Below, piece after piece: positions 7,207-27,129 of a stretch of DNA of 32,000 bases. The stretch covers positions 1 through 32,000 of the forward strand of contig JBHLKY010000002.1 in the NCBI GenBank assembly GCA_048886185.1. Direction: 5' to 3'. Position 1 is the stretch's first letter. Every line of letters begins with the position of its first letter. Both the position numbers and the translations under genes were made by a program. This DNA comes from Candidatus Hermodarchaeota archaeon. Its GTDB lineage: Archaea > Asgardarchaeota > Heimdallarchaeia > Hodarchaeales > Hodarchaeaceae. The notes beneath the pieces are model-generated. The model was not told the DNA's origin. It was given only the letters and a program-made list of their open reading frames with translations, and did no database searches.

Positions 7207-10200
7207 TTATCCACTCAACTTTGTCCAATCATAATTCTGTTCAGTTATCCAAGTACGATTTACAAAAAGATGTATTTTCCACCAGCTAGTCAAACCAACA
7301 ATATCATCGACACACACAAGATGTTCATGGGTAGTTAACCAACGGTAAGACTCAGTATAATTGATAGCATAAGGTGGTACATCATGGTGTTTGGAGTTAT
7401 TAACAACCAACCAAAATTTGATGTGGGGACGAGCCTCATAATATGCGTCCATTTTAGCAGGGTCATCTTCAGAAAAGGGAATATGATAAAAACGATTACG
7501 CCATTCTCTATCTTCAACTTCATATCCTAGGTAGTAACGCATTGCAAATTGAGAACCAGCGTCAGGAATGACCCAAGTGCTAAAATTATAATCACCACCG
7601 TGATTTTTGATGTAAATGGCCATTTCTTGATATCGAACATCAAAAATTTGGTTGATATGAACAAGAACCGAGGCGTTGATAAGCATAGCAGATAGTGTTA
7701 ATCCCAGAATGATCAGAGCTTGTGGCTTAACTTGTGGTTTTAGCCAATATAATCCCAAAATAAGTAAAACTACACCAATGAGTGTTGCGATTGGAGCTCC
7801 ATGCTCTACAACATCCAGTATCCATCCAAGATCTAGAGAAAAGATAGTTTCCAATAGATCATGGAAAAGGACATCATACAACGTTTTCAACCCATTAGCC
7901 TTAAACCATGAATCAATAAAGAATTTATAAGCAAAACCAGTTGTTATAACCCCAGGGAAAGTTTTAAGATAATAAAAGGCTATTATGGTGAAGGGTACAA
8001 GGTAAATAACAGCTACAAACAGATAGAATCCTAGGCTATCCAAATCCTCTAAGAAATGGGATAGTGATGTACTTCCAGATAGCAAACTTATTGGAGTATC
8101 CACAAAGTCAATAAAAGGTAAAATTAAGTATGTATATCCAATCTCAAGGTAAAAAATAAAACCTGCTAAAAAGCGTTCAACGTTATCTACTACAGTAATT
8201 CTCCAACGTTCGGAGGAATAAATATATTCAATTCCTTTTGCCGCAATGGCTAAGTACGGAATAGCTAATGGAATATAGTAATAATTCAACTGGAATTGTG
8301 CAGGAAAGAATATAAAAGGAATAGTTATCAACCACGCTAATAGTGCCGAACCTAAAGCAGGATTTCGTTTACTAGAGAAGAAAAAAGCAATAACACCCAC
8401 AATAAAAAATGGAAGCATAACAATTAAGGCATAATCGTTGATTGCACTCCCAACACTCCGTGCTAGGTCACCAGAATTTGTTGCATGTGAGTATCTCCAA
8501 CCTATATAGTAAGTGAAAAAAAGAAAGGTATAAGTTACGGGATCTGGTCTCTCTGGATCTCTTGATAATTCTCCTGGTGTACGGACAATCCAAGGGAAAG
8601 TTCCATTCGCAATATTCGCATCCAAGTATTGGACCCAGTACACAAAAGGATAAAAACTAATAATGATAAGGATAATAGCCACTGATAGGAAAAGTAAGTG
8701 ACTAGCAAATGCAGATACTTCCTCTGTTGATCGTAAATATGCTCCTAATTTAAAATATTTAGTGATTCTATTCTTCAACGTTGGGTAAGCTGTTACCAGA
8801 GGTATGAGTATTAGGGTAATAATCACACCAAATTGAGTAATCAAAAGTGCATCACGATCAAAGAATTGACCTACGAGAAGTATTGCTGCAAACCAATAAG
8901 CAAGCCATATCCCAATGATAACAAGAGGAATTAAGTCTAATCCTTCATATATTACCTTTAAAAAAATTGATTTACGATTAAATAGATCCAGAAGAACTCC
9001 AGAGAAAAAGAATACAATTCCAAAGGTGAGAATAAGTCCAAAAAGGGCAGCTATTATCTCAAGAGTCAGTAAAGCCAAGATTTCATTTGAGAATATCTCC
9101 TCTAATCCAGAAAAGAATCCAGATAAGACGTCTTCATCACCTAGTGCTTCTGCAAACAGAATGGCAGAACTTTCCAGTCTTCCATAAAAAACTTTAACTA
9201 CTAAATTCCCCGCAAATCCAGCAAGATATCCTGTGACTACAGCGGTTATTAATCCATCCGATCGCAATTGGCTTTTCTGTTCAAAACTTGCTCGTAAAAA
9301 TACAATATAACAGCCAATAGCAGCCACTACAGCTAAAATAATGCTGGAGACGAGTAATTGACCTGAGAAGAATGCTCCAAGGAATGAAGCACCTCCAGCG
9401 ACAAGACCTACAATATATGGGAAAGGTATCCCTTCTTTGAAATATTTTGACTGGATTAATTGATAGGCTTCCATATCTTTCGAAGATACAGTAAATCGTG
9501 TGCAGATCTCTGACCAGATAGTACGTAAATCATCAAGATTCATGTGACGCTCAAGATATCTAATTGTCAAATATATTGCAATGGCGGGATAAGTTAAAAT
9601 CCCCTGCCATGCTTTTGTTAAGATATTAAAGATATTCAGAATGAAAGTAACAATTAACAGAAAATATCCCTTACGAAGATTATTTTCTACAAAAATCGCA
9701 TCAACTGCCCTGATCCCGAATAACATCACTACTGCAGACATAAAGACTACAAAAGAATCAATATATGCCGTTCGTGAGTAAAAAGTCAAAAAATGAGCTA
9801 GTGCAACAAGCAATCCCGCAACTACTGCAGCGCTTCTGTTTTCTATCTGATGATTATATAGGAAATACACAACTAAGGCTAGGCCTGAACCGCCAAGAAT
9901 GACGACCCCTTTGACTGCAATAGTTGTACGACCAAATATTAACATTAAGAAAGCGCCCACCCAAAACGTAAAAGGAGGTTTATCAAAGAATTTAATGTCC
10001 CCCCCTTCTGCAGGATAGTAGAGAGGAAGCCAAGGGTCAGACGGGGGTGGTCCAAACGCCATTCTACTAGCTATTGCCGAAAACCATCCTTCATCCCACA
10101 TATCTATGCTGTGGGTAAATGCTACTTTAACCCAGAAAGCCAGAAGAGCTATTATTATGATGAATCGAAATTTAGTAATGATTGACCAAATCTTCTCCAA

Positions 10201-10266
10201 ATATCTAAGAAGTTGAGAAGAGGGTTTCAAGGAATCTGTTTCTTCATCTTGGGATGGCATATTCAT
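7207..10266 (-). CDS. Large GT-C fold glycosyltransferase (ArnT/PMT_2 family)
   Basis: 1019 aa, many TM helices; first-loop DMWDEGWFSAIASRM (DE motif), FFDKPPFTFW, SRTAYIDSFVVF, NILTKAWQG, and a late YYYIPLAIP motif. Confidence 0.85.
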   Translation of the reverse strand: MNMPSQDEETDSLKPSSQLLRYLEKIWSIITKFRFIIIIALLAFWVKVAFTHSIDMWDEGWFSAIASRMAFGPPPSDPWLPLYYPAEGGDIKFFDKPPFTFWVGAFLMLIFGRTTIAVKGVVILGGSGLALVVYFLYNHQIENRSAAVVAGLLVALAHFLTFYSRTAYIDSFVVFMSAVVMLFGIRAVDAIFVENNLRKGYFLLIVTFILNIFNILTKAWQGILTYPAIAIYLTIRYLERHMNLDDLRTIWSEICTRFTVSSKDMEAYQLIQSKYFKEGIPFPYIVGLVAGGASFLGAFFSGQLLVSSIILAVVAAIGCYIVFLRASFEQKSQLRSDGLITAVVTGYLAGFAGNLVVKVFYGRLESSAILFAEALGDEDVLSGFFSGLEEIFSNEILALLTLEIIAALFGLILTFGIVFFFSGVLLDLFNRKSIFLKVIYEGLDLIPLVIIGIWLAYWFAAILLVGQFFDRDALLITQFGVIITLILIPLVTAYPTLKNRITKYFKLGAYLRSTEEVSAFASHLLFLSVAIILIIISFYPFVYWVQYLDANIANGTFPWIVRTPGELSRDPERPDPVTYTFLFFTYYIGWRYSHATNSGDLARSVGSAINDYALIVMLPFFIVGVIAFFFSSKRNPALGSALLAWLITIPFIFFPAQFQLNYYYIPLAIPYLAIAAKGIEYIYSSERWRITVVDNVERFLAGFIFYLEIGYTYLILPFIDFVDTPISLLSGSTSLSHFLEDLDSLGFYLFVAVIYLVPFTIIAFYYLKTFPGVITTGFAYKFFIDSWFKANGLKTLYDVLFHDLLETIFSLDLGWILDVVEHGAPIATLIGVVLLILGLYWLKPQVKPQALIILGLTLSAMLINASVLVHINQIFDVRYQEMAIYIKNHGGDYNFSTWVIPDAGSQFAMRYYLGYEVEDREWRNRFYHIPFSEDDPAKMDAYYEARPHIKFWLVVNNSKHHDVPPYAINYTESYRWLTTHEHLVCVDDIVGLTSWWKIHLFVNRTWITEQNYDWTKLSG

Positions 10267-10373
10267 CTATTCCTCCCTTAAGAAAGAGATATTTAAGTTA
10301 GTTCCTAGCTCACTGCAGTGTACTTACGAGGTGTTTTTATTCACTAGATTCTGTTAAAAAATATTCAGAGAAT

Positions 10374-10796
10374 TTGGTGAAATTAATGCGTTTCTGGGTT
10401 TATATGCTCTTTGTTGGGAAAAAAATCCAAGGAAATAAGAGAAGAATCTACACTGGATTTACTAGTCGCTTAATGTCACGAATAGCACAGCATAGTGGAC
10501 TAGCTTCTACAAAGGGATCCCGAACTACCCGAAGGCAACGGATAGAACTTGTTTATTTGGAGTTATTTCCATCACGAAAAAAGGCGATGCAACGAGAGTG
10601 GCAACTCAAACATGAAAACCCATTCAATCAGAAAGAACATAAACTAACCCTTATTCAAGAATTCCAATTAAATTATGGAGAGCTTTTACAGGAATTAAAC
10701 ACTAAACTCGATAAACACTATGAATTTCTTATAGACATTGGTAAGACAATGCAGAGAGTCGAAAGAAGGCTTATTAGCGAGATAAGAAATAAATAA
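10374..10796 (+). CDS. GIY-YIG nuclease (UPF0213/YhbQ, SLX1-like)
   Basis: WVYML...IYTGFTSRLMSRIAQH...GSRTTR...LVYLELFPSRKKAMQREWQLK matches the family pattern including the conserved Arg and Glu; C-terminal helical extension. Confidence 0.85.
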   Translation: MVKLMRFWVYMLFVGKKIQGNKRRIYTGFTSRLMSRIAQHSGLASTKGSRTTRRQRIELVYLELFPSRKKAMQREWQLKHENPFNQKEHKLTLIQEFQLNYGELLQELNTKLDKHYEFLIDIGKTMQRVERRLISEIRNK

Positions 10797-10889
10797 TCCT
10801 ATTTGAGTCGAATAAATTCAAGTATTAATAAAATTCATTATCTGAGTATAATCCGAATATAATAGCAAGTTTGGAAGTGAAAGGAATCA

Positions 10890-12493: not shown

Positions 12494-12964
12494 ATGAGAG
12501 AAGCTGATATCATGATATTCAATTTTATACAGGATCCTGAATCCATTTTATATGAGAACTTGTTCTTTTGGTTAACAGTAGGGAAATATGATACAATTCT
12601 AGAGGGTGATTTGGAAGGTTATCACTATGAGGAATTCATAATTGTGAAAGATGAATGGAAGGAGAGAATTCTGTATCTGGAAAATATCGTTCCAATTCAA
12701 ACTCAAAGATTTCTTAGAGAACTAGGATCGATAAACGCGAGAAAAATCTTTCATAACAGTCACTTCAAGATATACTTCGTTATATATACCGTCGTTGGAA
12801 GATTAATCGGATTAGGACTTAGAATAATAACGCGTAATAATTTTTACGACTTGGCCTCAACCCCTGAAGACAGACTTCAAAAATCTATGTACCTCCTTAC
12901 CCGAGGCCTCTTAAGATCATTTTATCACCGAATTGACCAGATCGAATGTTCAATTCCCGCATAG
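12494..12964 (+). CDS. Hypothetical protein
   Basis: 156-aa ORF, ATG start, ending 12 nt before the Cas4-like gene; no motif recognised. Confidence 0.7.
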   Translation: MREADIMIFNFIQDPESILYENLFFWLTVGKYDTILEGDLEGYHYEEFIIVKDEWKERILYLENIVPIQTQRFLRELGSINARKIFHNSHFKIYFVIYTVVGRLIGLGLRIITRNNFYDLASTPEDRLQKSMYLLTRGLLRSFYHRIDQIECSIPA

Positions 12965-12976
12965 GAACATAATTAA

Positions 12977-13741
12977 ATGAGAAGTATCTCACCCTCCCTA
13001 ATAAAGGAATTCATGTTTTGTCCTCAAGCCTTTTTGTATCGAAAGGTACATAGATTAAGCCTAATCCCTCCAATGGAGATTAATGAAATCATTCTGGCTC
13101 AAGAAAGAGTGGATAGGATTACAGAAGCTTTTTTTTCTATTTTAAAAACTCATTGGTATAGAAGAAATGACCTGAAAACCCAATTCAACTTGAATTCCTT
13201 TTTCGATTCAATGTTCTCGTTTTTTTTAAAATATAATACTCAAGATGAAGTTTTAACCTATCAGGAACTTGGTGAAAAAGTTTTTACACTATTATCATGG
13301 CTAGTTCAATATTTATGGACAATAAATGTTCTTAATGATAAAATCCCCCAGTTCCTCCCTATCATGGTTAACCATTTTATTCAAGCACCTAGCATATATT
13401 TACAAGGACGACCATCTGCAGTATTCAAAATTCCTAAGGATTCTGTCCTTATTCTGATTCAAACGTATAGCAGAGAACTTCCACATACGAGGGATCAAGA
13501 ACTCCTCCAAGCCTCTATTTATGCCCGAATTTTGGAAACGATGGGCTTAAAAGCCCAAAACTTTCTTTATATTAATTATTGTACAATGAGTCTGGTATTT
13601 CAAGAATTAAAACATGTTGATTTTCTAAAAATGGAGATTTCTCTTAGTAAATTTCGATCAAATTTAGATGAAGGCAATTTTGATCCCCCAAACAATCCAC
13701 CATGTGACATATGTGAATTTAATTGTTTGTGTGACCGTTAG
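12977..13741 (+). CDS. PD-(D/E)XK superfamily Cas4/AddB-like protein, apparently catalytically degenerate
   Basis: ISPSLIKEFMFCPQAF (C15), LQASIYA (Q-x-x-x-Y motif), C243-x2-C246-x5-C252. Catalytic region reads LQGRPSAVF...LILIQTY in place of GxxD...D/ExK. Confidence 0.8.
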   Translation: MRSISPSLIKEFMFCPQAFLYRKVHRLSLIPPMEINEIILAQERVDRITEAFFSILKTHWYRRNDLKTQFNLNSFFDSMFSFFLKYNTQDEVLTYQELGEKVFTLLSWLVQYLWTINVLNDKIPQFLPIMVNHFIQAPSIYLQGRPSAVFKIPKDSVLILIQTYSRELPHTRDQELLQASIYARILETMGLKAQNFLYINYCTMSLVFQELKHVDFLKMEISLSKFRSNLDEGNFDPPNNPPCDICEFNCLCDR

Positions 13742-13877: not shown

Positions 13878-14585
13878 TTGGAGATTTTTATGAAGAAAAT
13901 GTGGGCTAAAATAATAATTTTAGGGGGAATATTGATGCTTGCTACTATTGGTTTCAGTCAAGGTGGTAGCAATCATGAGAAAAACTCATCATTAACTAAA
14001 TCATTGCAATTTTCTGATGTTAGGGCTTTGGATTTCACAATTCAAATGATTAATGAAACTGAAATTTATATGAGCGAATTATATGGAGATATAATTCTTT
14101 TAGATTTTATGGCAACATATTGTCTGAATTGTTTGATACAAATTGACATTCTACGATCAATTTACCAAAGGTTTGAAAGAATTTTAATTGTAACAGTATC
14201 AGTTTCACAAGCAGATTCAATCGAAATATTAAATCAGTATGCACAAGATTATGAAATTTCATGGATTATAGGACGAGATTTATATCAAGAAGCAGTAAGT
14301 GTATTCAATGTGACCATTATCCCAACTGTTGTTTTAATCAATCAACATGGAATAATTCAATATTATAACAAAGGAGTTGTATTGGAACCTCAATTAGAAG
14401 ATTGGATCATGAGTATAGGTGATTCTAGTTCTGTAACAAAAGTTTTTGATACAACTGTTGATTCTGATTTAACCTCATCAGTCTCCATTCCTCAAACATC
14501 TCCGAGTTTCACATTATTAATGACTGCAGCCTTTTTACACATAATGATTTTTATTCATCATATTCATCAAAAGAAAAATTACTAG
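13878..14585 (+). CDS. TlpA/ResA-like thioredoxin-fold protein, membrane anchored
   Basis: ILLDFMATYCLNC (CxxC), IVTVSVS, VFNVTIIPTVVLINQHGII; N-terminal signal/TM, Ser/Thr linker and C-terminal hydrophobic tail. ATG 13890 (GGAG SD) is the likelier start. Confidence 0.85.
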   Translation: MEIFMKKMWAKIIILGGILMLATIGFSQGGSNHEKNSSLTKSLQFSDVRALDFTIQMINETEIYMSELYGDIILLDFMATYCLNCLIQIDILRSIYQRFERILIVTVSVSQADSIEILNQYAQDYEISWIIGRDLYQEAVSVFNVTIIPTVVLINQHGIIQYYNKGVVLEPQLEDWIMSIGDSSSVTKVFDTTVDSDLTSSVSIPQTSPSFTLLMTAAFLHIMIFIHHIHQKKNY

Positions 14586-14595
14586 AATAGATTGT

Positions 14596-15348
14596 TTAAT
14601 ATTTTGATCTATTCTTATTGAATTTATGAGGTATAAGTACAAAATTGGAATATACAGCGATTTCCTGAAAAATTCTGAGCTCTAAACAATGTGTTTGGTC
14701 AATTTTTCGTATTAATATTTCAATGGGAGCAAATTGCTCTACTAGATACCCACCATGCTGATTTAATGAAGAAAAAGGGTTAAAATTTTCTCCAGGATAT
14801 ATTAAATGATTAGTCATTAGTATTGGAATGTTATTTTTCATAGCTAGTTGACTTAAATCATGGAGGTGGAAAAAAATCCTTTTTTCCCAGGGTCTTGCAT
14901 TTTTATAGAAATATTGCAAAGCATGTAAAGGAGACCCAAAAAGGGAATCCAATATTATTAAATCATATGGACACCTCGAGTTTTCCAGTAACTTACGAAA
15001 AAAGACGATCTGTTCAAATAAATTTGTTGGTTGGATAATTATAACCTGTTGGAGTAAAGAAGGATTTGGAAAGAGTTTTCGTAAATTAGAAATTCTGAGA
15101 TTTCCGCAGAAATCACTGAATAGAATTTTGGCGTCAGACTTTCCCTTAAAAAGACTATCGATAGCGCGAATACAGAACCAGGTCTTACCTACTCCTGAAT
15201 AACCAATTATATTGTGAATATAGCAAGGAAGAAGGCCTCCAATAACATCATCAATTTCCTGTATGTTAAGAGGGATAGCAGATTGTTTATTCCACCTTGC
15301 AAGTATATCTCTAAAGGGAATTGGTTGAAGGAAACTCAATTTTCTCAC
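14596..15348 (-). CDS. RadB/Rad51-paralog-like RecA-family ATPase
   Basis: IPLNIQEIDDVIGGLL...NIIGYSGVGKT (Walker A), YDLIILDSL (Walker B), PILMTNH; no N-terminal HhH domain. GTG start overlaps the upstream TGA (GTGA). Confidence 0.8.
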   Translation of the reverse strand: MRKLSFLQPIPFRDILARWNKQSAIPLNIQEIDDVIGGLLPCYIHNIIGYSGVGKTWFCIRAIDSLFKGKSDAKILFSDFCGNLRISNLRKLFPNPSLLQQVIIIQPTNLFEQIVFFRKLLENSRCPYDLIILDSLFGSPLHALQYFYKNARPWEKRIFFHLHDLSQLAMKNNIPILMTNHLIYPGENFNPFSSLNQHGGYLVEQFAPIEILIRKIDQTHCLELRIFQEIAVYSNFVLIPHKFNKNRSKY

Positions 15349-15782
15349 TCCACTTTAATTAACTTAATTTTAGTTCTTGGAAGTATTAACTTATCCATAA
15401 GCATAATAACGTTGATATATCTACAAAACTCACGAATTTGTATCTGAAAATCATGGTATAAGTTAAAATAATTGGGAATATGAATGATAACTGTAGAAAA
15501 TCCATTTTGGGCAACGAAATACAGCTCATTGGATCTAATCAGCTGTTCTATTATATCAATGCGGGGAAATTCAAGGAAAAATAATTGATCCAATATGTAT
15601 GAGTAATCTCGTAAATTCCTTATAAGAGTAAGAATTGGTATAACACAATAATCTATCCAAATTATTTTTGGTATTAAAAGCGTGATATTTTCATCACTCA
15701 AAAGACGTTTAACCACTTCAAGATAGTTTCCTATAAAAACAATAGGTTTTCTCTTTATTGAATGGGAAATCAAAGTCAACAC
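15345..15782 (-). CDS. Hypothetical protein, possibly a degenerate RecA-fold core
   Basis: 145 aa within the operon; strand pattern PIVFIG / KIIWID / ILDQLFFLE / FSTVIIH parallels the RecA core but has no GKT. Confidence 0.6.
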   Translation of the reverse strand: MLTLISHSIKRKPIVFIGNYLEVVKRLLSDENITLLIPKIIWIDYCVIPILTLIRNLRDYSYILDQLFFLEFPRIDIIEQLIRSNELYFVAQNGFSTVIIHIPNYFNLYHDFQIQIREFCRYINVIMLMDKLILPRTKIKLIKVE

Positions 15783-15792
15783 TCATTGCTAT

Positions 15793-16851
15793 TCATAATT
15801 TTGTCTGTTTTTTTGGATCAAGAATTGTCTGTTCTCTTTCGGTCAAATGTTCCCTATAAATCATGTAATATGGTACGCCAAAAAAACCAATTAAGAGAAG
15901 AGGAATCATTAATACTCCAGGAACAGGATGTGATCCTAATATATCACCGAACGGGTAAGTTGATCGAGATTGATAGATACCAACAACAGAAATAGATAAC
16001 ACGATTCGTGTTGTTTCACTCAAGCTTTCATAATCAGGAGAAATTAATAAAAAAAGAGGTTCTTTATCAGTTTTTGTCAAAGATGAATTGAAACGAATTG
16101 AATGACTCCCTTTACTCACAGAAAGGGTCTGATCATCTACTTTTAAGTAGTTAACACCTATTGGCTGCATTCTAATTGAAATTGTACATAATAGCTGCAT
16201 TTGGGGGGGCATATGAACAAAGAGAATTAGAGAAGCTAATAAGTCCTTCTCTAAGAAAGAGTATTTTACAGGTTGAATCTGGTACAAATGATCTGCATTA
16301 TATAATAGTTGACTTTCCCACGGTTCACCTAGGTCAAGAAGTATTAAACGAGCTTCTTGAACATAGAAATCAACGAGTGGGTCTCTCCATGATACATCAT
16401 GATCTAATTGAAGAAGGATTTCTAACTGAATCTCAGTTTGACCAGTATAGTTCAAAATTATACTAAGTATTTGAGGAAGTTCAAATTGATAAGAATAGGC
16501 TTGAATTAATCCTACTTGTTCAGATTTCCTAAATGTAGCCTGTACAGGGGCTCCATTTGTTTTCACATTAAGTGAAATACTGTCGAGCTGATCCCCAAAA
16601 TTCTGAACACTCATATTCAGTAAAATTCGATCCCAAACTCGGGATAAAACAAGGTTTCGTTTAAAAGAAGTTTCCACCTCGGTTATAGTTCGGGATATCC
16701 CGAGATTTATTGACTCTGAAACAATCGAGGTATTGTTAGGAATTTGAGATTTTGCAATAGGGACCGAAAGGATTTCATCACTATAAATACTCATTAATAA
16801 GATGAAAATCAGTAAAACAAAGGTTTTATTCATTCGACTGAGATTAACCAA
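15793..16851 (-). CDS. Secreted, C-terminally membrane-anchored protein of unknown function
   Basis: 352 aa (TTG 16851; ATG 16833 alternative); signal peptide KTFVLLIFILLMSI, beta-rich body, C-terminal TM PGVLMIPLLLIGFFGVPYYMIY and a short charged tail. Confidence 0.8.
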   Translation of the reverse strand: MVNLSRMNKTFVLLIFILLMSIYSDEILSVPIAKSQIPNNTSIVSESINLGISRTITEVETSFKRNLVLSRVWDRILLNMSVQNFGDQLDSISLNVKTNGAPVQATFRKSEQVGLIQAYSYQFELPQILSIILNYTGQTEIQLEILLQLDHDVSWRDPLVDFYVQEARLILLDLGEPWESQLLYNADHLYQIQPVKYSFLEKDLLASLILFVHMPPQMQLLCTISIRMQPIGVNYLKVDDQTLSVSKGSHSIRFNSSLTKTDKEPLFLLISPDYESLSETTRIVLSISVVGIYQSRSTYPFGDILGSHPVPGVLMIPLLLIGFFGVPYYMIYREHLTEREQTILDPKKQTKL

Positions 16852-17440
16852 AAAGAGTCACCTCGGAGATAACTTGAAAATGGTTAAGAATTAAATTGGC
16901 AATATTCAATGACAGCAGAAACAATCCAAGATGTGAACACCTATCATTAGCTTTTAAGTTGTTAAACGGAATTCTAGCTAATCTAAAGGTTTTAGAATTA
17001 GTGAGTTGACGCCAAGAATAATGCTTGACGGGGTGGGGTAAATAAACAGGAGTTTTTCCTAAAGGTATCCCCTCAGGATTCAAAGCATCCAAGAAAAGAT
17101 GTGAAGACCATCCTATTGTGATATTTAAGAAAATTATAAGGATCACAGGTTCAGAGACTTCCTCCACAATGTAGAAAATTGGTACAAAATAACCAAGAGT
17201 CCAAGGAGAATGGGTTAACGGATGACGATATTGAATGGTACCTCCATATGTGAAATGTACTCTTTCATACTGCCAATTTGTAGTAATATAAGTGTCTAAA
17301 ATGTTGGGAATAATACTAATCCCACTTAAAGGGATGGATAAAACAAACGAAAGCCATGCAAGAAGTGGGTTTGTAATAAAAATTAATATGTAAAGATTAT
17401 ATACACCAACAGCAAAGAAGTAGTGAGTATTATTTTTCAG
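16844..17440 (-). CDS. YdjM/DUF457-like membrane metal-dependent hydrolase
   Basis: Frame is open 91 codons upstream of the track's GTG (17167) to CTG 17440. 198-aa product has N-terminal TH, IPNILD, RHPLTHS and SHLFLDALNPEGIPL, the family's His/Asp motifs. Confidence 0.8.
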   Translation of the reverse strand: MKNNTHYFFAVGVYNLYILIFITNPLLAWLSFVLSIPLSGISIIPNILDTYITTNWQYERVHFTYGGTIQYRHPLTHSPWTLGYFVPIFYIVEEVSEPVILIIFLNITIGWSSHLFLDALNPEGIPLGKTPVYLPHPVKHYSWRQLTNSKTFRLARIPFNNLKANDRCSHLGLFLLSLNIANLILNHFQVISEVTLFG

Positions 17441-17450
17441 AATCTCAACC

Positions 17451-20400
17451 TCATTTCTTTTTAGTAAGAATCTTTCCTACTGCTACAAATGCTGCAAAGA
17501 TGCTCCCTGCAAAACCAAGTTCAAATAATTCATTGATACCTTCAGTTTCTTTAGATCCTAGAGAATCATCATTGGGTAAAGAAGTGAGAACAGCACTAGT
17601 ATCAGGAGTCTTGGTCGATACATCCAAATCATCAATTTCAACTGTAATAGAAGGAAGATATTTAAAAGTTTCTTGTTGAATATCATCATATGCCACCAGT
17701 TGAAGGCTATGCGTTCCCTCTTTTAACCAAATCTCAAAGATGAAATGTGTGCCGTTTTGAGAGACAGCTGCTAATTCTATGCCATCAACAAAGAGTATAA
17801 CGTTCTCAACACTGTAATCATCGTTGACAGCCACTTCAACTCTCCACAATTCTCCTGTAGTGTACCTCGCAATGAGAATAACTTCTTCTACTTTGAATCT
17901 GGGAGGTGTGTCAGAAGCATTAAAGAGTCCTCTAATAACCCGTTCGACTCCCTGACTATCAGAGGCAACAATGGCATAAGTCCAGATACCAGGTTGAAGA
18001 TTAGGTGATGTAAACTCCCATTCTTGGTAATCTTCCGCAATATACTCATAGAAGGAAGTTTCATTCACTTTAATCTGATTATATCCATTACTAATGGTCA
18101 ATTCTACTGATGATGTATCTATTGAGGCGTTTTGCCTTTCAATTTGAACTATTAGGGAGAAGTTTGTCCTAGTAGGATTATACTCTGCTATTATTGAGGG
18201 AGCGTACCAGTGAATATCAAACTCTTGCACAGTAGATGGATTTTTATCCCACGGATACCAAATAAAAAATATTGTTGTAGTATTTTGAGGATAGAAGGGA
18301 AGACTTGTTTCCCAACGATTCCCATAATATTCTGTTAGATTGTACGTAACATTATTGTACGAAACCTGAACTGTGTCAAGAGGGAGAGTTCCTGAATCAA
18401 TGTAAACACGCACCCCATATGAGGACGAATCAAATGATATAGAAATTGATTCAAAGACTGGAGGAGGAGGAGCCCATTCAATAATGAAATATTGAAAATC
18501 ATACTCAGTCAAAGTAGTATTTGCACTAAGCGTGAGTTGCCAAACACCAGGTGTCTCGAGCTGAAATGTTGTTCTATAATCCTGATGAATGATACTCCAT
18601 TCTAAGTTATCAAAATAAGTGCCATTAAGAAAAATTCCAATTATATCAAAATTTGGGTGATTTAGTATTTGTGTATAAACAAGGTAATTCCCTGCGTCAT
18701 CAATGATCTCCCAACCAGAATTAATAAGTAAATCAATAGGTTGGACAATAGAGAACGTAATAGATTCTGTATTACAATTACCTGCATCATCAAATGCATA
18801 TACATTAAGAGTATAGTAGCCTATTGAAAGATTGAGCAATAAAGGTTGTGTATATGTGTGATTGAATGCATGAACTTGAGAAATTGAGTATAATATCGTA
18901 CTAGCATTTGATCCAATAATTATCTCAACACCCCCAATATACCTCTGGTTATAAGGAGAATATATCTCTAAACTTGGAGTAATTGTATCAATAGTGAATA
19001 TAGCTAAAGAAGTGACATTATTTCCAACTTTATCTCCTGCTACAATTGTTAAATTATGTGTTCCTTCTTTTAAATCAGTGAGTAGTGTTTCTGTTTCAAT
19101 TTTTTCTAATTCTGACCCATCTAAGAATATTGATACTTCAGTTTCGTCCGTTATGTATGATATAAGAATATCATTAGTTGTATAAGTAGTATTGGTGGGA
19201 TTGATCAAAATTAAGGAAGGGGCTGTCGTATCTACTGTAAATGTAGACCAAACATATGAAACAACTCCATAATCATTTATACCATACACATGGCATTTAA
19301 AGCTCCCCTCTGGTAAATTTCGATAAATTGGAGCTGTCCATGATGTATTAGTTTGATCTTTTGGTTCAATACGATACCAATAATCCTTTGCATCCCCTAT
19401 TATGGACACTTCAACAATAGATCCGTATGTCTGATTTTTAGGACTTATAATCTCAATATTCGCAGGAATTGAGTTAATTAATAAAATTGATTCCTCACTA
19501 GAGGCGGAATTGTAAAAATCGGTCTCACTAACGGCAGTTCTCACTACAAGGCCATAATACCCTGGATTACTGATTGCAAACGAAAAATAATATCGACCTG
19601 CTCCATCAGTTGCATCAACCTGCAATCTAGTACCATTCACCTCTAGAGTAGCATCAATTCCCTGAATTGGACCAGACACCTCTCCAATTACTGTACCATC
19701 TAGATTGAAGGTGATATTTGTCATTACTTCCAATGGTGCGTACAGAAAAACAAACAACTCTTCATATACTTTGACCTCATGATGGAATTCATGGTAATAG
19801 ACATAAGTCTCATTACTAATAATTGTGATTTCCTTTAATCCACGATAGGGAAAAACACACTCATATTGATGAATACCAGCTTGGTTCCAGTCTTGCCAAA
19901 GCTGATCCTCTATCCAAATTTGAAATTGTTCGGATGAATTAACTGTAAAAGGATAAGGGTCATTTACGTTTCCCTTTTTATCGCCTAAAATGATTATTTC
20001 AGGAATTGCATACATAGAAGAGAAATCGTATTTTGTGCTCTTCGGGCCAATAGCTCGAATAGTAAAATCTCCTTTATAATATGGAGTAGACCAATTATAA
20101 AATCCTTGGCCTGATGAGCTAAGTTCGACAGATGTGATATGATTCCAGCTGGATTCACCATTTTTCTGCCATTGTAATTCAACAATATCTTGTAATCCTC
20201 CCTCCAAAGAGATGTTTGTCCAATGATTAGCTAAGACCTCGGTTTCTACCATAATAGATAATGATGGTCTTACTATAAAACTAACCACTGGACTGTTAAT
20301 TGAAGGATGATAATACTTTAGGATGTTGCCTAGATACGTCACTTCAACGAAGTGAACTCCAATTTGAGTAGAATCTGATATTTCATAATCATAGAAGAAA

Positions 20401-22256
20401 ATTCCTTGGTCATTGGTTTCACTTGTGCCTATAAACATGCCAATGGTATTGTCAGTTAGTATGATCTCTTCATAAATTAAAGGATGACTAAGTTCATCAC
20501 GTAACTTTCCCCAGATTCTTACTGTGTGCCCCTTGATAACTTCTGATCCATTTGTCCCCGTAGTATTGAACATTGGATTAGCAAATACTGTAAGAAAAAA
20601 TGATTCTACATGTTCATCATAATTAGAAGAATCAAAGAAACGAACTTGATAGTTTGTAACACCACGGGGGTGTGAAATTTTTATATGGTAATAAAATTCT
20701 AATCCAGGTTCACAGCTTTTTGTCTCAATAATTGAACTATTGGCCGAAAACTCTAAAGAAACACGTCCTTCATTGATTGGTGAATCTCCTGAAAGAACAG
20801 TCACTTGAATGATGGTAATAGCATTTCGGACAACTCCTCCAACCTCATAAGTCAAGTCAATTTCCGTCAAACCTTTAATAATAATAGGAAAGATTTCCAT
20901 ATTGCCTAGAATGAACTCATTGGTATCATGAGTCTGTAAGCTGAACTCATGACTTCCAACGGTTAAGTTATGAGGAATAGGATATTCAATTATAACAAAA
21001 CCATCTTGGTTTGTAGTCTTATTTATTAATGAACGGTTATTCTCTGTTACATCCATTAATTCAACTTTCGATACAACAGGGTGAGTCCAAACATCCTCTT
21101 CAGTTACATAAATTTCAAAACGAATAGTTTCATTATGTCTATATACAGTAGAATTCTCTGAATGAGCAATTCTTGCACGATCAATGATCGATACTTCTTC
21201 TATTGAATTTGCGTATTGAAGTTCTGTACTAGGGTCAATAAGTATTGTGAAAATTGATAGTACTCCTATTGGTATTGAACTATTTGGAGAAAAATACGTA
21301 ATTAAATTTCGGGAGATAAGAAAACGCTTATCAATGATAACCTCTTTTTCATCCAAATAATAGTAGGTTTTAAGCTCTAATCCTATCGGATTATCCCCTA
21401 ACACAGTGGTATTAAGTTCTAAAGTGCCTTCTTCACGTTGAAGAGCATTTTGGTCTAAAGTTTGGACTAACCAAAATCCTGTACTTAGAACGGTGACGTT
21501 TTGAAGAGAGGATGTACAAAATTTTGTCTGTGATTGTGAACTCCCAGTATACTGAGCAAGAAATGAATTAATACCGACAGATGTGAAGACAGGTATTTTG
21601 TAATCAAAAGAAAATGTCAGTACAGCCGATGGAATGAGTGGTAAGGGACCATAAGTATAAATTGTTGGAGTTCCATTGAGATCTTTGTTTTTAACATAAA
21701 TATACCCCCCTTTGAAGTAGGGTTGTACAGAGTTAAGAATTTCAAGTTTGACTGTAAATCTAATTGAAGAATTCTTATAAACAACGGTAGAATTACTAGA
21801 GAGATCAATAGCGGTAGTTATAGTGCTTCCTGAACTGAAATCATCGAAATTTATTAGACAAATCCCTGAAGAGGGAGAATAATCGAGAAAACCCTGGAAT
21901 TCAGCTTCAAAGATATGGATCCCTTCAATAAAAGGATCCGTTACTGTCCAATTAATCGTTGCTTTCCCCGCTAGAATTGTACTATCGATAGATTCACTCG
22001 TATTAGTATCTGTAATTTGAATGGGACCAGTTGGCACAGGATTAAATCCTGTAAACACCCATATTGAAAATTGAATAGTATTATCAGGCCCAATGGCCCC
22101 AACATCAGAAAGAATTGTTGTCGATGTTTCCATTGGTGCTGCTATGCCATTAGGAACCGCAATCAAAACTAAAACGAAATAAATGTTAGTTAAAAACCAT
22201 AGTCCTACAATTTTGTCACTTCTAATTCTTGACTCTAAGTTCATAGTAGTAACCAC
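17451..22256 (-). CDS. Giant multi-Ig-like-domain cell-surface protein
   Basis: 1601 aa (ATG 22244 with GGTGGT SD is a likely start); signal peptide; many beta-sandwich modules, repeated I.I.SP.N.TY / DT..P motifs, many N-x-S/T sequons; C-terminal TM plus KKK. Confidence 0.9.
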   Translation of the reverse strand: MVTTMNLESRIRSDKIVGLWFLTNIYFVLVLIAVPNGIAAPMETSTTILSDVGAIGPDNTIQFSIWVFTGFNPVPTGPIQITDTNTSESIDSTILAGKATINWTVTDPFIEGIHIFEAEFQGFLDYSPSSGICLINFDDFSSGSTITTAIDLSSNSTVVYKNSSIRFTVKLEILNSVQPYFKGGYIYVKNKDLNGTPTIYTYGPLPLIPSAVLTFSFDYKIPVFTSVGINSFLAQYTGSSQSQTKFCTSSLQNVTVLSTGFWLVQTLDQNALQREEGTLELNTTVLGDNPIGLELKTYYYLDEKEVIIDKRFLISRNLITYFSPNSSIPIGVLSIFTILIDPSTELQYANSIEEVSIIDRARIAHSENSTVYRHNETIRFEIYVTEEDVWTHPVVSKVELMDVTENNRSLINKTTNQDGFVIIEYPIPHNLTVGSHEFSLQTHDTNEFILGNMEIFPIIIKGLTEIDLTYEVGGVVRNAITIIQVTVLSGDSPINEGRVSLEFSANSSIIETKSCEPGLEFYYHIKISHPRGVTNYQVRFFDSSNYDEHVESFFLTVFANPMFNTTGTNGSEVIKGHTVRIWGKLRDELSHPLIYEEIILTDNTIGMFIGTSETNDQGIFFYDYEISDSTQIGVHFVEVTYLGNILKYYHPSINSPVVSFIVRPSLSIMVETEVLANHWTNISLEGGLQDIVELQWQKNGESSWNHITSVELSSSGQGFYNWSTPYYKGDFTIRAIGPKSTKYDFSSMYAIPEIIILGDKKGNVNDPYPFTVNSSEQFQIWIEDQLWQDWNQAGIHQYECVFPYRGLKEITIISNETYVYYHEFHHEVKVYEELFVFLYAPLEVMTNITFNLDGTVIGEVSGPIQGIDATLEVNGTRLQVDATDGAGRYYFSFAISNPGYYGLVVRTAVSETDFYNSASSEESILLINSIPANIEIISPKNQTYGSIVEVSIIGDAKDYWYRIEPKDQTNTSWTAPIYRNLPEGSFKCHVYGINDYGVVSYVWSTFTVDTTAPSLILINPTNTTYTTNDILISYITDETEVSIFLDGSELEKIETETLLTDLKEGTHNLTIVAGDKVGNNVTSLAIFTIDTITPSLEIYSPYNQRYIGGVEIIIGSNASTILYSISQVHAFNHTYTQPLLLNLSIGYYTLNVYAFDDAGNCNTESITFSIVQPIDLLINSGWEIIDDAGNYLVYTQILNHPNFDIIGIFLNGTYFDNLEWSIIHQDYRTTFQLETPGVWQLTLSANTTLTEYDFQYFIIEWAPPPPVFESISISFDSSSYGVRVYIDSGTLPLDTVQVSYNNVTYNLTEYYGNRWETSLPFYPQNTTTIFFIWYPWDKNPSTVQEFDIHWYAPSIIAEYNPTRTNFSLIVQIERQNASIDTSSVELTISNGYNQIKVNETSFYEYIAEDYQEWEFTSPNLQPGIWTYAIVASDSQGVERVIRGLFNASDTPPRFKVEEVILIARYTTGELWRVEVAVNDDYSVENVILFVDGIELAAVSQNGTHFIFEIWLKEGTHSLQLVAYDDIQQETFKYLPSITVEIDDLDVSTKTPDTSAVLTSLPNDDSLGSKETEGINELFELGFAGSIFAAFVAVGKILTKKK

Positions 22257-22329
22257 CCTCTATTCCTAATGAACCTTAAATACTAGAAATTAACATTGGG
22301 CTGATTCTGAATATAAAAGTCAGAGAAGG

Positions 22330-22344
22330 AATCTACAGTAGATT
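22330..22344. promoter_or_regulatory. Palindrome AATCTAC-A-GTAGATT, candidate operator
   Basis: Perfect 7-bp arms with a 1-nt spacer inside the 136-bp divergent intergenic region. Confidence 0.4.
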
Positions 22345-22364
22345 ATTAATTTAAAATCATGTGG

Positions 22365-22372
22365 TATAAAAA
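22365..22372 (+). promoter_or_regulatory. Putative TATA box of radA
   Basis: TATAAAAA ending 20 nt before ATG 22393; spacing fits a leaderless or short-leader archaeal promoter. Confidence 0.45.
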
Positions 22373-22392
22373 AGAGAATAAAGTGAATAACA

Positions 22393-23415
22393 ATGGCAAA
22401 AGTCGAAACAAAAGAAAAAGAAATGCTACCTGAACCAACTAAAGAAGAAAAGCAGAAGAAATTAAAAAAGAAAGCTGAAGATTCCGAAAAGGCTTTTTTA
22501 GAGACAATTTCAGGGATTGGTCCAACGACACGGTCCCGCTTGGAGGAAGCTGGCTTTGGAAGTAAAGAAGCCATTGCTTTGGCCACACGGTCGCAATTAA
22601 CAGAAATTTCAGGGATTGCAGAAAAAACTGCCTCACTTCTGATTAGAGAAGCCCGTGCACGATTTGATTTAGGATTAAAAAAGGGGACTGATTTTGAGGC
22701 GGCTGCTAAAACCCGAGTCAGATTAACAACTGGTTCTAAGGTTTTCAATGAACTGCTTGGAGGGGGATTTGAAACAGGAAGTATCACAGAAATCGCAGGT
22801 GAAAATGGATGTGGGAAAACTCAGATTGTACACCAATTAGCAGTTAATTGTGTTAAGTATCTTGATCAAGATGTAATATGGATTGATACAGAGGGAACTT
22901 TTCGATTTAATCGGATTGTACAGATGTCAGAGGCTTTAGGAATTGATCCAGACAATGTTCTCGCTCGTATTACTGTTGGGAGGGCCTATAATAGCGAACA
23001 TCAAATGGCATTGACAGAAGAAGCCTTAACTATGGTTCCCAATGTTGGCTTGATCATAATAGACTCCCTCATGTCACATTTCCGTAGCGAATTTGCAGGT
23101 CGTGGGACACTGGCTGAACGTCAACAACTTATAGGAAAACATTTAGCATTTATTTCAAAACAGGCAGAGATGCTTAATTGTGTTGGTATTGTAACGAATC
23201 AAGTTTCAGCAAAACCTGATGCTATATTCTTTGGGGATCCAAACAGACCAGTTGGAGGTAATGTTGTAGGTCATTCAGTTACCTCACGATTGATGATTAG
23301 AAAAGGAAAAGCGATTAAACGAACTGCCACTTTAACAAAAAGCCCCGAACTGCCTGATGGGAAAATTGAGTTTGCTATCACTACTGAAGGTGTTCGCGAT
23401 TACTCATCTAATTAA
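22393..23415 (+). CDS. radA: DNA repair and recombination protein RadA
   Basis: HhH (ISGIGP), LTTGSKVFNELLGGGFETGSITEIAGENGCGKTQ, WIDTEGTFR, LIIIDSLMSHFRSEFAGRGTLAERQQ, TNQVSAKPD...GGNVVGH. Confidence 0.95.
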   Translation: MAKVETKEKEMLPEPTKEEKQKKLKKKAEDSEKAFLETISGIGPTTRSRLEEAGFGSKEAIALATRSQLTEISGIAEKTASLLIREARARFDLGLKKGTDFEAAAKTRVRLTTGSKVFNELLGGGFETGSITEIAGENGCGKTQIVHQLAVNCVKYLDQDVIWIDTEGTFRFNRIVQMSEALGIDPDNVLARITVGRAYNSEHQMALTEEALTMVPNVGLIIIDSLMSHFRSEFAGRGTLAERQQLIGKHLAFISKQAEMLNCVGIVTNQVSAKPDAIFFGDPNRPVGGNVVGHSVTSRLMIRKGKAIKRTATLTKSPELPDGKIEFAITTEGVRDYSSN

Positions 23416-23437: not shown

Positions 23438-25249
23438 TCAATCTTCTCTTATTAGTGATTCAAACTCATCTGTAAGTTTGGAATATTGTTGTAGTCCGCT
23501 TTTCCAGAAGGAGGAACCAATCTTTTTAAACCCAAGATATGAAGCAATTTCCTGAGGAGACATACTTCCTCCTGCTTCTAATACGGTTTTAAACTTTGGC
23601 ATAAATTGTACTTTATTTCTCTTATACTCTTGAAAACAATTATACACGAAGATCAAAGCAAAAATATATGGATAATTATAGAACTTTAAATCAGGAATAT
23701 AATAATGGGGTGTTGTTGCCCATTCCCATTTCATTTTTTCTGGGAACATCATAGCATCTCCATAAACTTTTTGTCGTGCAGCTACATAATATTGATTTAT
23801 AGTATCACCATCTAAAAATACGTTTCTTTCAATAGCCTCATAGACACTCTTCTCAAACCAGAAACGTAAACTCCCCCAAAACATTGAAAAACCGTTAAAG
23901 TCCAAGATTTCAGTTAATACTTGGATCTTTTCGTCTTTAGTCTTGAAATAACCCAGTAAATAATCAGTAAGAATTAGTTCGCCAAATTTTGAGGCGATCT
24001 CTGCAACAATTGGGCCTGAACTGACATTTAATGGTTTCTGCTTTCTTAAAATGAGATAACTATGTACAGCATGCCCAAGTTCATGCGCTAAGGTGTAAAT
24101 ATCGTTTAAATGACCATTATAGGAAAGTAAAACAAATGAAGACTTATCTCTTAACCAGTAATTACAAAATGCTCCATTAGTTTTTCCCTGCCTAGGAGAG
24201 GCATCAATTCGTTGAGAATCAAACATTTTTTGAACTAGATTTCCTAATTCCTGATCACATGAATTAAAAGTATTTAAAATAATTTCTTTAGTCTGGCTCC
24301 ATGAATATTTTTTCGGAGATTGTATTCGTGGAGGAGCAAATCTATCAGATCCACTTAAAACTGGAACTTTTAATTGTTGGGCCTTAAGTTTTAAGTATCT
24401 CTGATAAAGGCTGACATTTTGTTCCATAATTAGCATTAAATCTTCAATAGACTGACGATCAATGTTTCCAATTATTAAGCTGTGGTGGATAGGATCTTGA
24501 TATTTACGTCGTTTAGATATTAAAACCCAATCATTACATATACTTCGAAACACAGTTGAATAAATCTCTTGATCACACTCCACTTTACTGTAAAGAGACT
24601 TAATTGCTGCTTCACGCACTTGTGAATTTGAATCATGAAACAATCCCATTATTTTCCCATATGAATATTGTCGAATTTGATCATCAATGGTGATGGAGTA
24701 TTCTTGGCTATTGAGCCACTTATTACGCAATTCTACCAATTCAGAAATACCAAATCTATCTTTCTCAATGATCAACTCTTCTGTATTCATATTGAGTTGA
24801 TGTCGAAATTTCTCTAATTCTTTTTCGAGATAGGGTTTATACTCGTGTAAAATTGGATCTCTGAGTAATTCAGAATTTGACATAAGAATTTGATTTATTT
24901 TGAGCTTAAATTTTATCGAGAGTCGTTTGATTTTATTTTTAATATTAAGTGCAAAATTCATTGCTATTTGATTTAACTTAAGACTAGTGTTGGCTGCAAA
25001 TGACAAGCCCCCATAAATAATGAGATCATGTGTATCAATAAGTAATTCTTCAAAATCTTCCAACAGCTGTTTAATTTCATTTGCTTTCAGGGAATCTTTA
25101 TCCAAGAATGGATCGTATTTTATAGAAAGGAGGTCAATAGATTCTTCATTATTTTTTGCAAGAGACTTTAACTTCTCTTCAGTTGCATTTGGAATTACTT
25201 GTCCAAGGTTCCACTTAATTTCTTCTGAATTTTGACTCATATTCGTCAC
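23438..25249 (-). CDS. pepF: Oligoendopeptidase F (M3B zinc peptidase)
   Basis: RIDASPRQGKTNGAFC, TLAHELGHAVH (HExxH), AEIASKFGE, HYYIPDLKFYNYPYIFA. Confidence 0.95.
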   Translation of the reverse strand: MTNMSQNSEEIKWNLGQVIPNATEEKLKSLAKNNEESIDLLSIKYDPFLDKDSLKANEIKQLLEDFEELLIDTHDLIIYGGLSFAANTSLKLNQIAMNFALNIKNKIKRLSIKFKLKINQILMSNSELLRDPILHEYKPYLEKELEKFRHQLNMNTEELIIEKDRFGISELVELRNKWLNSQEYSITIDDQIRQYSYGKIMGLFHDSNSQVREAAIKSLYSKVECDQEIYSTVFRSICNDWVLISKRRKYQDPIHHSLIIGNIDRQSIEDLMLIMEQNVSLYQRYLKLKAQQLKVPVLSGSDRFAPPRIQSPKKYSWSQTKEIILNTFNSCDQELGNLVQKMFDSQRIDASPRQGKTNGAFCNYWLRDKSSFVLLSYNGHLNDIYTLAHELGHAVHSYLILRKQKPLNVSSGPIVAEIASKFGELILTDYLLGYFKTKDEKIQVLTEILDFNGFSMFWGSLRFWFEKSVYEAIERNVFLDGDTINQYYVAARQKVYGDAMMFPEKMKWEWATTPHYYIPDLKFYNYPYIFALIFVYNCFQEYKRNKVQFMPKFKTVLEAGGSMSPQEIASYLGFKKIGSSFWKSGLQQYSKLTDEFESLIRED

Positions 25250-25386: not shown

Positions 25387-27129
25387 ATGATTGGTACCAA
25401 TCTTCCAGCTTCATTACAACTCTTTCCTCACCCCGAACTACGAGCATATCAAACAAAATTTCTCCGATTTGTAGAGAAAAATCCTAAAGCAATGATCCAT
25501 GCTCCAGTGGGATTTGGAAAAACCATAATGGCTTTAATCCATGCTCTTCCTCTAGTACGATCAAAAAACTATCAACTCTTTATTTTTGTAAGAACGAAAA
25601 CCCAGGTCTTTCGTGTTTTCCTTAATGAAATATATAAAATCGCTAATAGCAGAAAATACGGATACTTAACTGCTGTTCCTCTCATCCTAAAATCAGATCT
25701 TTGTTTGAAAATAAATGAAATTCCCCAATTCTATCACGAAATTTGCGGACAAATTCGATGTCCTTTTCTAGAACAAACAAAGTCGATCCCGGAAGAAGAT
25801 TTCTTAGCGATTGTAGAACAAATACCTATCACGGCTCACGAAGGTTCTATCTCGGTCGAAACATATAAAGAGGCATTTAGAGAATTTGGCTGCCCATATC
25901 ATGTAATTAAACGTTGTATTCCATTTACAAATATTATTGTCACAACTCATACATACTTGAGGAGTAAAAATCTTCAAGAGATGTTCTCAAAGCTGATTTC
26001 ACGGAGTTCATTCACAAGGAAAATGGCCATAATTGATGAAGGGCATAATTTTACTGCTGATATAGAATCAGAAATTACTATAACTGATTTGAATAAAGCA
26101 CGAACTATTATCCCTTTAAAAGTCATTGATGGCCTTCAGGAGCTGATTTTATCTCAGAATGGAAGAGTGGAAAGACCTAAAAACATGTCATCTGCATCAT
26201 TGGATGCGTTCTTAGATCATGAATATAAAATATCACTAGCAGACAAAAATCATCTGTTAAAGGTCAAAGATTTTCTTGATTCCCGAGGGGACATATGGGT
26301 TTCGGAAGAAAACAAGCTCATTCAGTTAAATCCATATCCACATCATGCTTTTGATTTTGTGAATTCTCACTTTGATGATGTAGTCATAATGTCAGGTACT
26401 TTCACTCCCCTCTCATTGTACAAGACCCTTTACAATTTAGATTTTGCCACGCTTCAGATTCCTTCAGATTTTCAGTTTAGCCTAAATGGGATCCTCTATC
26501 ATCGTCAATTTACTTCAAAATTTACTGAACGAAATGCAAAGACGTATGAAGCAATGGCTGCAGTCATACAACGATTACATTCAAGTAATCCATTTCATAC
26601 AATTGTCTATGCCACATCACATGAAATGAAACAGAAGATTCAGGCACATATTTCCTTACAAAAAATTTATAGTGAAAGTCCTAGGGTTACTCCATTTTTC
26701 ATTGATGAATTAAGAAAGAAGAATCATGAATGTATCTTTGGCGTGATAGCTGGGAAGCTGTCCGAAGGTATCGAGATTCTAGATTCCAATACAAATCAAA
26801 GCTTGTTATCACTAATAATCATTGCGGGCCTGCCGTTTCCTCGCCCTGATGCTACCAATCAGCTGTTACAATCTCTTTATAGACAAAAATGGGGTTGGAG
26901 AATATCAAAACTATTCTCAATGTTACCAGTCACCCGAAGTATTTCTCAAGCTATTGGTAGAGGTATAAGATCTGAATCAGATTTTGCAGCTAGCCTCATC
27001 CTAGATTACCGTGCAGTGAAGATGCGAGTAATGTTACCCCCGACGCATATTTTTCGTAATCTCCAGACATTATATAATGCATATGATATCTTTTTTGCCA
27101 AAATGAAAAAGTTATTCGATTTGCACTGA
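25387..27129 (+). CDS. Rad3/XPD/DinG-family Fe-S DNA helicase
   Basis: ELRAYQ (Q motif), APVGFGKT, four Cys (DLC, EIC, IRC, GCPY), IIDEGHN, IMSGT, LSEGIE, AGLPFP, SQAIGRGIRSESD. Confidence 0.9.
   Translation: MIGTNLPASLQLFPHPELRAYQTKFLRFVEKNPKAMIHAPVGFGKTIMALIHALPLVRSKNYQLFIFVRTKTQVFRVFLNEIYKIANSRKYGYLTAVPLILKSDLCLKINEIPQFYHEICGQIRCPFLEQTKSIPEEDFLAIVEQIPITAHEGSISVETYKEAFREFGCPYHVIKRCIPFTNIIVTTHTYLRSKNLQEMFSKLISRSSFTRKMAIIDEGHNFTADIESEITITDLNKARTIIPLKVIDGLQELILSQNGRVERPKNMSSASLDAFLDHEYKISLADKNHLLKVKDFLDSRGDIWVSEENKLIQLNPYPHHAFDFVNSHFDDVVIMSGTFTPLSLYKTLYNLDFATLQIPSDFQFSLNGILYHRQFTSKFTERNAKTYEAMAAVIQRLHSSNPFHTIVYATSHEMKQKIQAHISLQKIYSESPRVTPFFIDELRKKNHECIFGVIAGKLSEGIEILDSNTNQSLLSLIIIAGLPFPRPDATNQLLQSLYRQKWGWRISKLFSMLPVTRSISQAIGRGIRSESDFAASLILDYRAVKMRVMLPPTHIFRNLQTLYNAYDIFFAKMKKLFDLH

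Follow-up and report, generated by a model that had tools for sequence, protein, structure and literature searches.

A genus-restricted, operon-like locus of a Hodarchaeales archaeon that places envelope genes beside a putative recombination-accessory pair of RecA-fold proteins

We analysed a stretch of 32,000 nucleotides (nt), hereafter the window, from a Hodarchaeales/Heimdallarchaeia-type metagenome-assembled genome (MAG; 4.84 Mb in 75 contigs, labelled G000). Within it we studied the locus at 14596-23415, where five closely packed genes of the minus strand stand head-to-head with a RadA-family gene, radA-w. The five genes are on balance best read as a genus-restricted operon of two separable modules: a surface module, and a recombination-accessory pair that hitch-hikes with it. 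The first would be an envelope set made of a giant, glycosylated protein with immunoglobulin (Ig)-like domains (big1601), a membrane hydrolase of the YdjM family and a secreted protein with a C-terminal anchor (sec352); the second would associate r250, an ATP-binder that would not hydrolyse its nucleotide, with the P-loop-less g145. The place of the pair at the 3' end of the envelope operon would reflect genomic hitch-hiking, with at most a shared regulation, and not membership of one machine. The features of the locus are as follows, protein lengths being given in amino acids (aa).

r250: 14596..15348, minus strand, 250-aa core-only RadA/RadB-like protein (from the open reading frame listing)
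g145: 15345..15782, minus strand, 145-aa degenerate RecA-fold protein without P-loop
sec352: 15793..16851, minus strand, 352-aa secreted protein with a C-terminal anchor and no recognised domain
YdjM-like gene: 16844..17440, minus strand, polytopic membrane protein of the YdjM/DUF1286 family, putative metal-dependent hydrolase
big1601: 17451..22256, minus strand, 1601-aa surface protein with Ig-like domains
divergent spacer: 22257..22392, no strand, 136 bp between big1601 and radA-w
radA-w: 22393..23415, plus strand, full-length paralogue of the RadA-family recombinases (helix-hairpin-helix (HhH) domain and ATPase core)

From big1601 to r250 the genes are spaced by 10, -8, 10 and -4 nt, the stop of g145 overlapping the start of r250 (GTGA), and g145 and r250 are a translationally coupled pair. 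The packing is so tight that intergenic promoters have no room, and we infer that the five genes are co-transcribed. PADLOC anti-phage defence models did not match any of the five proteins. This arrangement, the gaps and the 136-bp spacer were part of the original prediction and agree with the coordinates of the reading frames; the labels then given to the genes were likewise borne out by domain searches, hydropathy, alignments of orthologues and structure models.

Separability of the two modules

Three genomes of the same genus, G003, G008 (99% complete) and G012, have no g145 and no r250 but retain the envelope trio and radA-w. A remnant of g145, 26 aa long, subsists in G003, and profile searches retrieved no copy of either gene elsewhere in these three genomes. 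In the big1601 tree G003 and G008 are sisters and G012 stands apart, so that the pair must have been deleted at least twice. A further case is G021 (L024, G021:C49 5009-6162), where both genes of the pair are found with two in-frame TGA codons, one at a tryptophan position and one inside Walker A; the envelope genes stay, the big surface protein measuring only 994 aa (7837-10821), and no radA-w orthologue was found upstream of the locus or elsewhere in this genome (88% complete). In all cases g145 and r250 are kept, lost or broken jointly. As for sec352, its cytoplasmic tail—about 20 aa, and conserved—is unchanged, and still conserved, in the genomes devoid of the pair.

The envelope genes also exist in a second form that does without RecA-like genes. 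Five relatives (G020, G002, G018, G012 and G003; L043-L047) possess a paralogous cluster in which a gene for a 563-aa protein is divergent from YdjM-like, sec352-like and 233-aa genes, accompanied by a convergent 425-aa AAA (PF00004) ATPase and a 295-aa protein; this cluster is absent from the genome of the window. The 233-aa protein that follows the sec352-like one was considered as a candidate RecA-like protein and rejected (hhalign probability 0.1%). In G003 the 233-aa and 563-aa parts of the cluster are fused into a single protein of 988 aa.

The RecA-fold pair

r250 belongs to the RadA/RadB side of the RecA superfamily. With a profile of 11 orthologues, the search against the PDB returned RadA (6e-12), RAD51D (1.5e-8) and RadB (2cvf, 2.5e-7), Dmc1 being matched as well; the AlphaFold2 (AF2) model, whose predicted local distance difference test (pLDDT) is 82.6, superimposes on Dmc1, RAD51 and the RAD51 paralogues with Foldseek E-values of 1e-15 and a template modelling score of about 0.7. 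The best NCBIfam model is RadB (TIGR02237; 4.2e-11), with 43.1 bits that remain under the equivalog cut-off of 172.4. The earlier description of this protein as a RadB-like ATPase is thus sustained as to its RadA/RadB likeness, though with a RadB score below the threshold. PHROG profiles gave one weak match, to a "DNA repair protein" family. Against genome contigs, the r250 alignment found only MAGs labelled Hodarchaeales or Heimdall and one weak P-loop match in Altiarchaeota.

Like RadB, r250 is by its alignment and its model a core-only RecA fold with Walker A and Walker B motifs (GYSGVGKT and LIILD), the Walker A glycine and lysine and the Walker B aspartate being invariant across orthologues. 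In an alignment with the genome's five RadA genes, r250 lacks the catalytic glutamate (IDTEG becomes SDFCG and other variants) and the glutamine of TNQ (TNH); the arginines of L1 are gone and L2 is variable. All five RadA paralogues keep the catalytic glutamate, TNQ and L1. r250 is a core-only RadA/RadB-like protein that would bind ATP and probably does not hydrolyse it.

No match to g145 was obtained in Pfam, NCBIfam or PHROGs, and only 17 representatives were collected among 1.84 billion proteins; the more divergent of them (P0036, P0038) stand in the same gene order or on a 1.1-kb contig. The AF2 model (pLDDT 86.9) is a RecA-like core devoid of P-loop. Foldseek relates it to KaiC, RAD51 and RadA at E-values of about 1e-4, and VIA-align gives Z scores of 9.8 for XRCC3/RAD51C, 9.6 for BCDX2, 9.5 for RecA, 9.3 for FlaH, 8.8 for Psy3-Csm2 and 8.4 for RadB. 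The RecA fold first suspected from the sequence is confirmed, and r250 and g145 are new RecA-fold families restricted to the genus.

The two proteins are predicted to bind each other as a heterodimer. Their modelled complex reaches an interaction prediction score from aligned errors (ipSAE) of 0.77, the best control being at 0.00, and passes a mark that 58 of 80 solved complexes attain, as do 2 of 110 mismatched pairs; this pass may reflect a likeness to solved interfaces, since interfaces of the RecA family have already been solved. Three prediction runs share at least 82% of their contacts, with a partner pLDDT of at least 80. In the predicted interface, residues 4-19 of r250, its N-terminal strand, rest on strand 67-75 of g145: r250 would dock on the edge of the g145 beta-sheet much as RadA/Rad51 protomers join one another. 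The most likely role of the pair is that of a recombination accessory: of the mediator or filament-capping type, it would serve recombinases of the RadA family, plausibly the product of the adjacent radA-w. On this reading its functional affinity would be with the surrounding RadA-family and repair genes. A precedent exists in Haloferax, where RadB is a recombination mediator (PMC5480776).

The envelope genes

The product of big1601 is matched by Pfam Big_13 (4.8e-9) and by weaker Ig-like models. It starts with a signal-like hydrophobic segment and ends with a transmembrane segment followed by KKK, and contains 40 N-glycosylation sequons (NxS/T). Its best Atlas leads are Ig-like repeat proteins, and its orthologues are 43-62% identical.

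The YdjM-like protein of the window scores 4.4e-4 and 20.2 bits against PF04307, under the Pfam gathering cut-off of 29. All 13 orthologues examined match this family at E-values of 0.01 or less, the best at 4.2e-8, and the orthologue on L065 has PF04307 on record; a paralogue reaches 30.5 bits. Seven residues are invariant across orthologues (H6, H73, H77, H114, D118, H136 and H140), and among the Atlas features YdjM accounts for 85 of the 100 top matches, with a score of 0.93. The start of this gene deserves a comment. The frame is open from stop to stop over 16844-17476 with no ATG, GTG or TTG before 17167, and the 10-nt gap with big1601 depends on a CTG start at 17440; in the alignment this codon falls precisely on the ATG (MKNxTHY) of 12 out of 12 orthologues. 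This CTG could be a non-canonical initiation codon, a recent mutation of the start codon or a sequencing error. At this site (17438-17443) the CTG is preceded by ATT.

sec352 has a signal-like N-terminus and a C-terminal transmembrane segment. It has no Pfam match, NCBIfam and Atlas provided nothing usable, and its Atlas model is poor (pLDDT 0.49, template modelling score <0.45). As paralogues of the YdjM-like and sec352 proteins also come paired elsewhere in the genus, the two probably cooperate on the cell surface, and they would be the core of the surface module.

Distribution and conservation of gene order

At least 16 genomes, all belonging to a single GTDB genus, share this succession of the five genes and radA-w. 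Of 20 genomes of the genus searched for sec352, 19 carry it, and none of another 280 Asgard genomes searched does; a word-index search of 5.8 billion proteins retrieved 22 sec352 proteins, all from Hodarchaeales-type MAGs. r250 was detected in 17 of the genus's 21 genomes, and matches elsewhere are at the level of paralogues only. The pair evolves fast: identities range from 22 to 55% across the genus for g145 and r250, versus 70-85% for radA-w; both reading frames are intact in at least 14 genomes despite this deep divergence.

Conservation of the gene order had been proposed as a test of a functional tie. That order does hold, with the divergent RadA gene included, within a single collinear genus only; since the flanks are collinear within the genus too, it is not independent evidence for such a tie. 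No publication on this operon came up in our literature searches. In G015 a 1964-aa frame (L014) looked like a fusion of RadA with the surface protein; we rejected it, the frame crossing a run of N that marks a scaffold gap. This "single-contig" genome contains such runs (G015:C1, about 12600-12700), so that adjacency across the gap is unreliable.

One system, a membrane ATPase or a relic?

The locus had initially been proposed as a candidate DNA-damage-linked system of cell contact or DNA exchange, in which surface proteins, RecA pair and radA, induced by damage through their shared divergent control region, would act together in a manner analogous to Ups/Ced. Several observations go in this direction: the operon-like packing and the gene order that at least 16 genomes share, two conserved promoter-like elements separated by about 30 bp, of which the one on the radA side is enclosed by an inverted repeat, the number of lineage-specific genes at the locus (radA-w, the pair, sec352), the pair never being seen away from envelope genes, and the behaviour of E. 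coli ydjM, which rises alongside SOS genes after irradiation (PMC12346926). Set against them are the loss or breakage of the pair in at least three lineages where the envelope genes persist, the sec352 tail conserved without it, the RecA-free paralogous modules and a synteny limited to one collinear genus. Besides, Pfam scans of the 24 open reading frames of the window of at least 110 aa revealed no pilin, secretion ATPase, VirB4/HerA-like gene, or ComEC-like or other DNA channel, as had in part been noticed from the start. We therefore consider this explanation improbable and a coupling of the surface genes to DNA exchange as unsupported. It is just as doubtful that envelope trio and pair belong to a single membrane-anchored machine tying cell-surface contact to recombination through a dedicated RadA paralogue, be it a non-homologous analogue of Ups/Ced or a primitive device for genetic exchange between cells. 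With the envelope link made unlikely by the present evidence, the locus should not be cited as a DNA-exchange system.

The pair might, on the other hand, have nothing to do with DNA and be a regulatory ATPase module associated with the membrane, comparable to ArlH or KaiC, for the assembly, signalling or turnover of the envelope. Its operon shared with membrane proteins, from which it is never found apart, would fit, as would the likeness of g145 to FlaH/ArlH (Z 9.3) and to KaiC, the absence from r250 of both DNA-binding loop signatures and catalytic glutamate, and the constant presence of a different ATPase, the AAA protein, beside the paralogous envelope cluster. This AAA gene, however, is convergent and outside the operon; three genomes keep the envelope trio without the pair and with an unchanged sec352 tail; and the profiles of r250 are closer to RadA, Dmc1, RAD51D and RadB than to KaiC and ArlH (RadB 4e-11 against 0.099 for KaiC_arch_4, the KaiC matches being confined to the P-loop region). 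We regard such a module as unlikely. Nor does it seem probable that the pair is the decaying relic of a local duplication in the RadA family, with little or no present function: its fast evolution, the lost catalytic glutamate, at least three independent deletions or breakages and the restriction to one genus would be expected of a relic, but the frames are intact in at least 14 genomes, the Walker A glycine and lysine and the Walker B aspartate are invariant, the start-stop coupling is maintained and the predicted interface is confident and reproducible.

The reading in two modules, with a recombination-accessory pair, has its own weak points. Every comparison comes from one genus, hence the comparisons are not independent of each other. 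Wherever the pair was seen, the envelope trio accompanied it, and in all genomes with both sec352 and g145 the junction between the two stays between -4 and +21 nt despite protein identities of 22-55%, which also fits a tie with the envelope. As to the function, any action of the pair on DNA or on RadA is putative; the L1 and L2 signatures of DNA binding are absent from r250, g145 matches ArlH/FlaH and KaiC about as well as the Rad51 paralogues (Z 9.3 versus 9.8), and G003 and G012 retain an intact radA-w without the pair, so that radA-w can dispense with it.

The divergent control region

Across eight aligned orthologous spacers, two TATA-like elements are conserved at a distance of about 30 bp from each other; the features are as follows.

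CTTAAATACTAGAAAT: 22275-22290, facing the envelope operon, TATA-like in the spacer alignment
ATATAAAA: 22311-22318, facing radA-w, TATA-like in the spacer alignment
Inverted repeat GATTC (22303-22307) / GAATC (22329-22333), flanking ATATAAAA

A conserved AAAGTGAA lies directly upstream of the ATG of radA-w. The spacer may thus reasonably be taken to contain two back-to-back promoters, and the position of CTTAAATACTAGAAAT suggests a leaderless or short-leader transcript for the envelope operon.

radA-w and its neighbourhood

radA-w is matched by the Pfam families Rad51 (1.6e-71) and HHH_5 (1.1e-13) and keeps all the catalytic and DNA-binding motifs (GENGCGKT, IDTEG, IIIDS, HFRSEFAGRG and TNQ). 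Calling it "radA" was right as to the family; the genome has four other full-length paralogues, however, and three of these outscore it on the RadA models, with 423-446 bits for NF003301 and 402-437 bits for TIGR02236, to be compared with 356.6 (cut-off 259) and 336.4 bits (under the cut-off of 361.15) for radA-w. Along with the five full-length genes, the genome encodes a second short RadB-like core-only protein (203 aa), also without catalytic glutamate. Genomes of this genus have 3-5 RadA matches and the other Heimdallarchaeia searched 1-4; a duplication of RadA has been reported for Heimdallarchaea-type lineages (PMC12722695). Orthologues of radA-w are 71-85% identical within the genus and 54% in G022, a member of a sister family with the same gene order, whose contig of 2.6 kb is too short to inform on the context. 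Elsewhere in the class the best matches are only at the level of paralogues (<=47%), which makes radA-w a lineage-specific RadA paralogue. In G008 (L040, G008:C27 5803-6819) radA-w has one in-frame TAG at a position occupied by a glutamate in the window; either a nonsense mutation or an error in the assembly could account for it.

radA-w lies in a neighbourhood rich in repair genes, with an XPD-like helicase, a PD-(D/E)XK and a GIY-YIG gene within a few kb. In close relatives the helicase gene follows radA-w on the same strand at about 25 nt.

GIY-YIG nuclease domain gene: window 10374-10796
PD-(D/E)XK (Cas4-like) gene: window 12977-13741
XPD-like helicase gene: window 25387-27129
Other RadA-family loci in G000: C13:19852-20544, C1:129389-130081, C14:111288-111968 and C14:24570-25244 (L056, L057, L059, L060); C3:76398-76847 (L061)

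In the window an M3 oligopeptidase gene of the minus strand (23438-25249) lies between radA-w and the XPD-like helicase. At the other end of the locus, a gene for a membrane-anchored thioredoxin-like protein (13878-14585; AhpC/TSA, Thioredoxin_8) runs convergent to r250 and lies 10 nt from the r250 stop; none of the relatives examined has a counterpart at this position.

Comparison with known systems

Like the RadB of Euryarchaeota (TIGR02237), r250 is a core-only RecA fold in the range of about 230-250 aa that has Walker A and B but no N-terminal HhH domain. It differs by its host (an Asgard genus), by its score on this family (43 bits versus 172), by the missing catalytic glutamate, by the gene of its P-loop-less partner and by its operon with envelope genes. 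The eukaryotic Rad51-paralogue complexes (RAD51D-XRCC2, RAD51C-XRCC3, Rad55-Rad57, Psy3-Csm2) offer a parallel in organization: two diverged RecA-fold proteins, one with a degenerate nucleotide site, and a RecA-type protomer interface, here predicted. They are also the top structural neighbours of both models. No sequence orthology to eukaryotic Rad51 paralogues is detectable, however, and with a pair restricted to one genus and evolving fast the similarity is probably an independent invention.

ArlH/FlaH and the archaeal KaiC-like ATPases are, similarly, small RecA-superfamily proteins acting at membrane machines, and FlaH is a neighbour of g145; no archaellum genes are nearby, and the profile of r250 favours the RadA/RadB lineage. 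As to the YdjM/DUF1286 proteins (PF04307, PF06939), the gene of the window shares with them the polytopic membrane topology, the conserved histidines and aspartate, and a family match for all its orthologues; it departs from them by its own sub-threshold score and by its constant pairing with a genus-specific protein of the sec352 type. With the Ups pili and the Ced DNA import of Sulfolobales, which are UV-induced, the locus shares no more than the notion of tying envelope functions to recombination: genes for a type IV pilin, an assembly ATPase, CedA-like or CedB (HerA/VirB4-like) proteins were not found in the window.

Significance

The RadA family of this genus is unusually large, with five full-length, two short core-only and one P-loop-less member, in an order, Hodarchaeales, widely discussed as containing the archaea nearest to eukaryotes. 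A real link with the envelope would be far more striking, and is unlikely on present evidence; the remainder of the locus is ordinary lineage-specific envelope biology. If it is true that the pair modulates the RadA filament, mediator heterodimers would have arisen independently in Asgard archaea, and g145 and r250 would provide a simple model for the evolution of such complexes.

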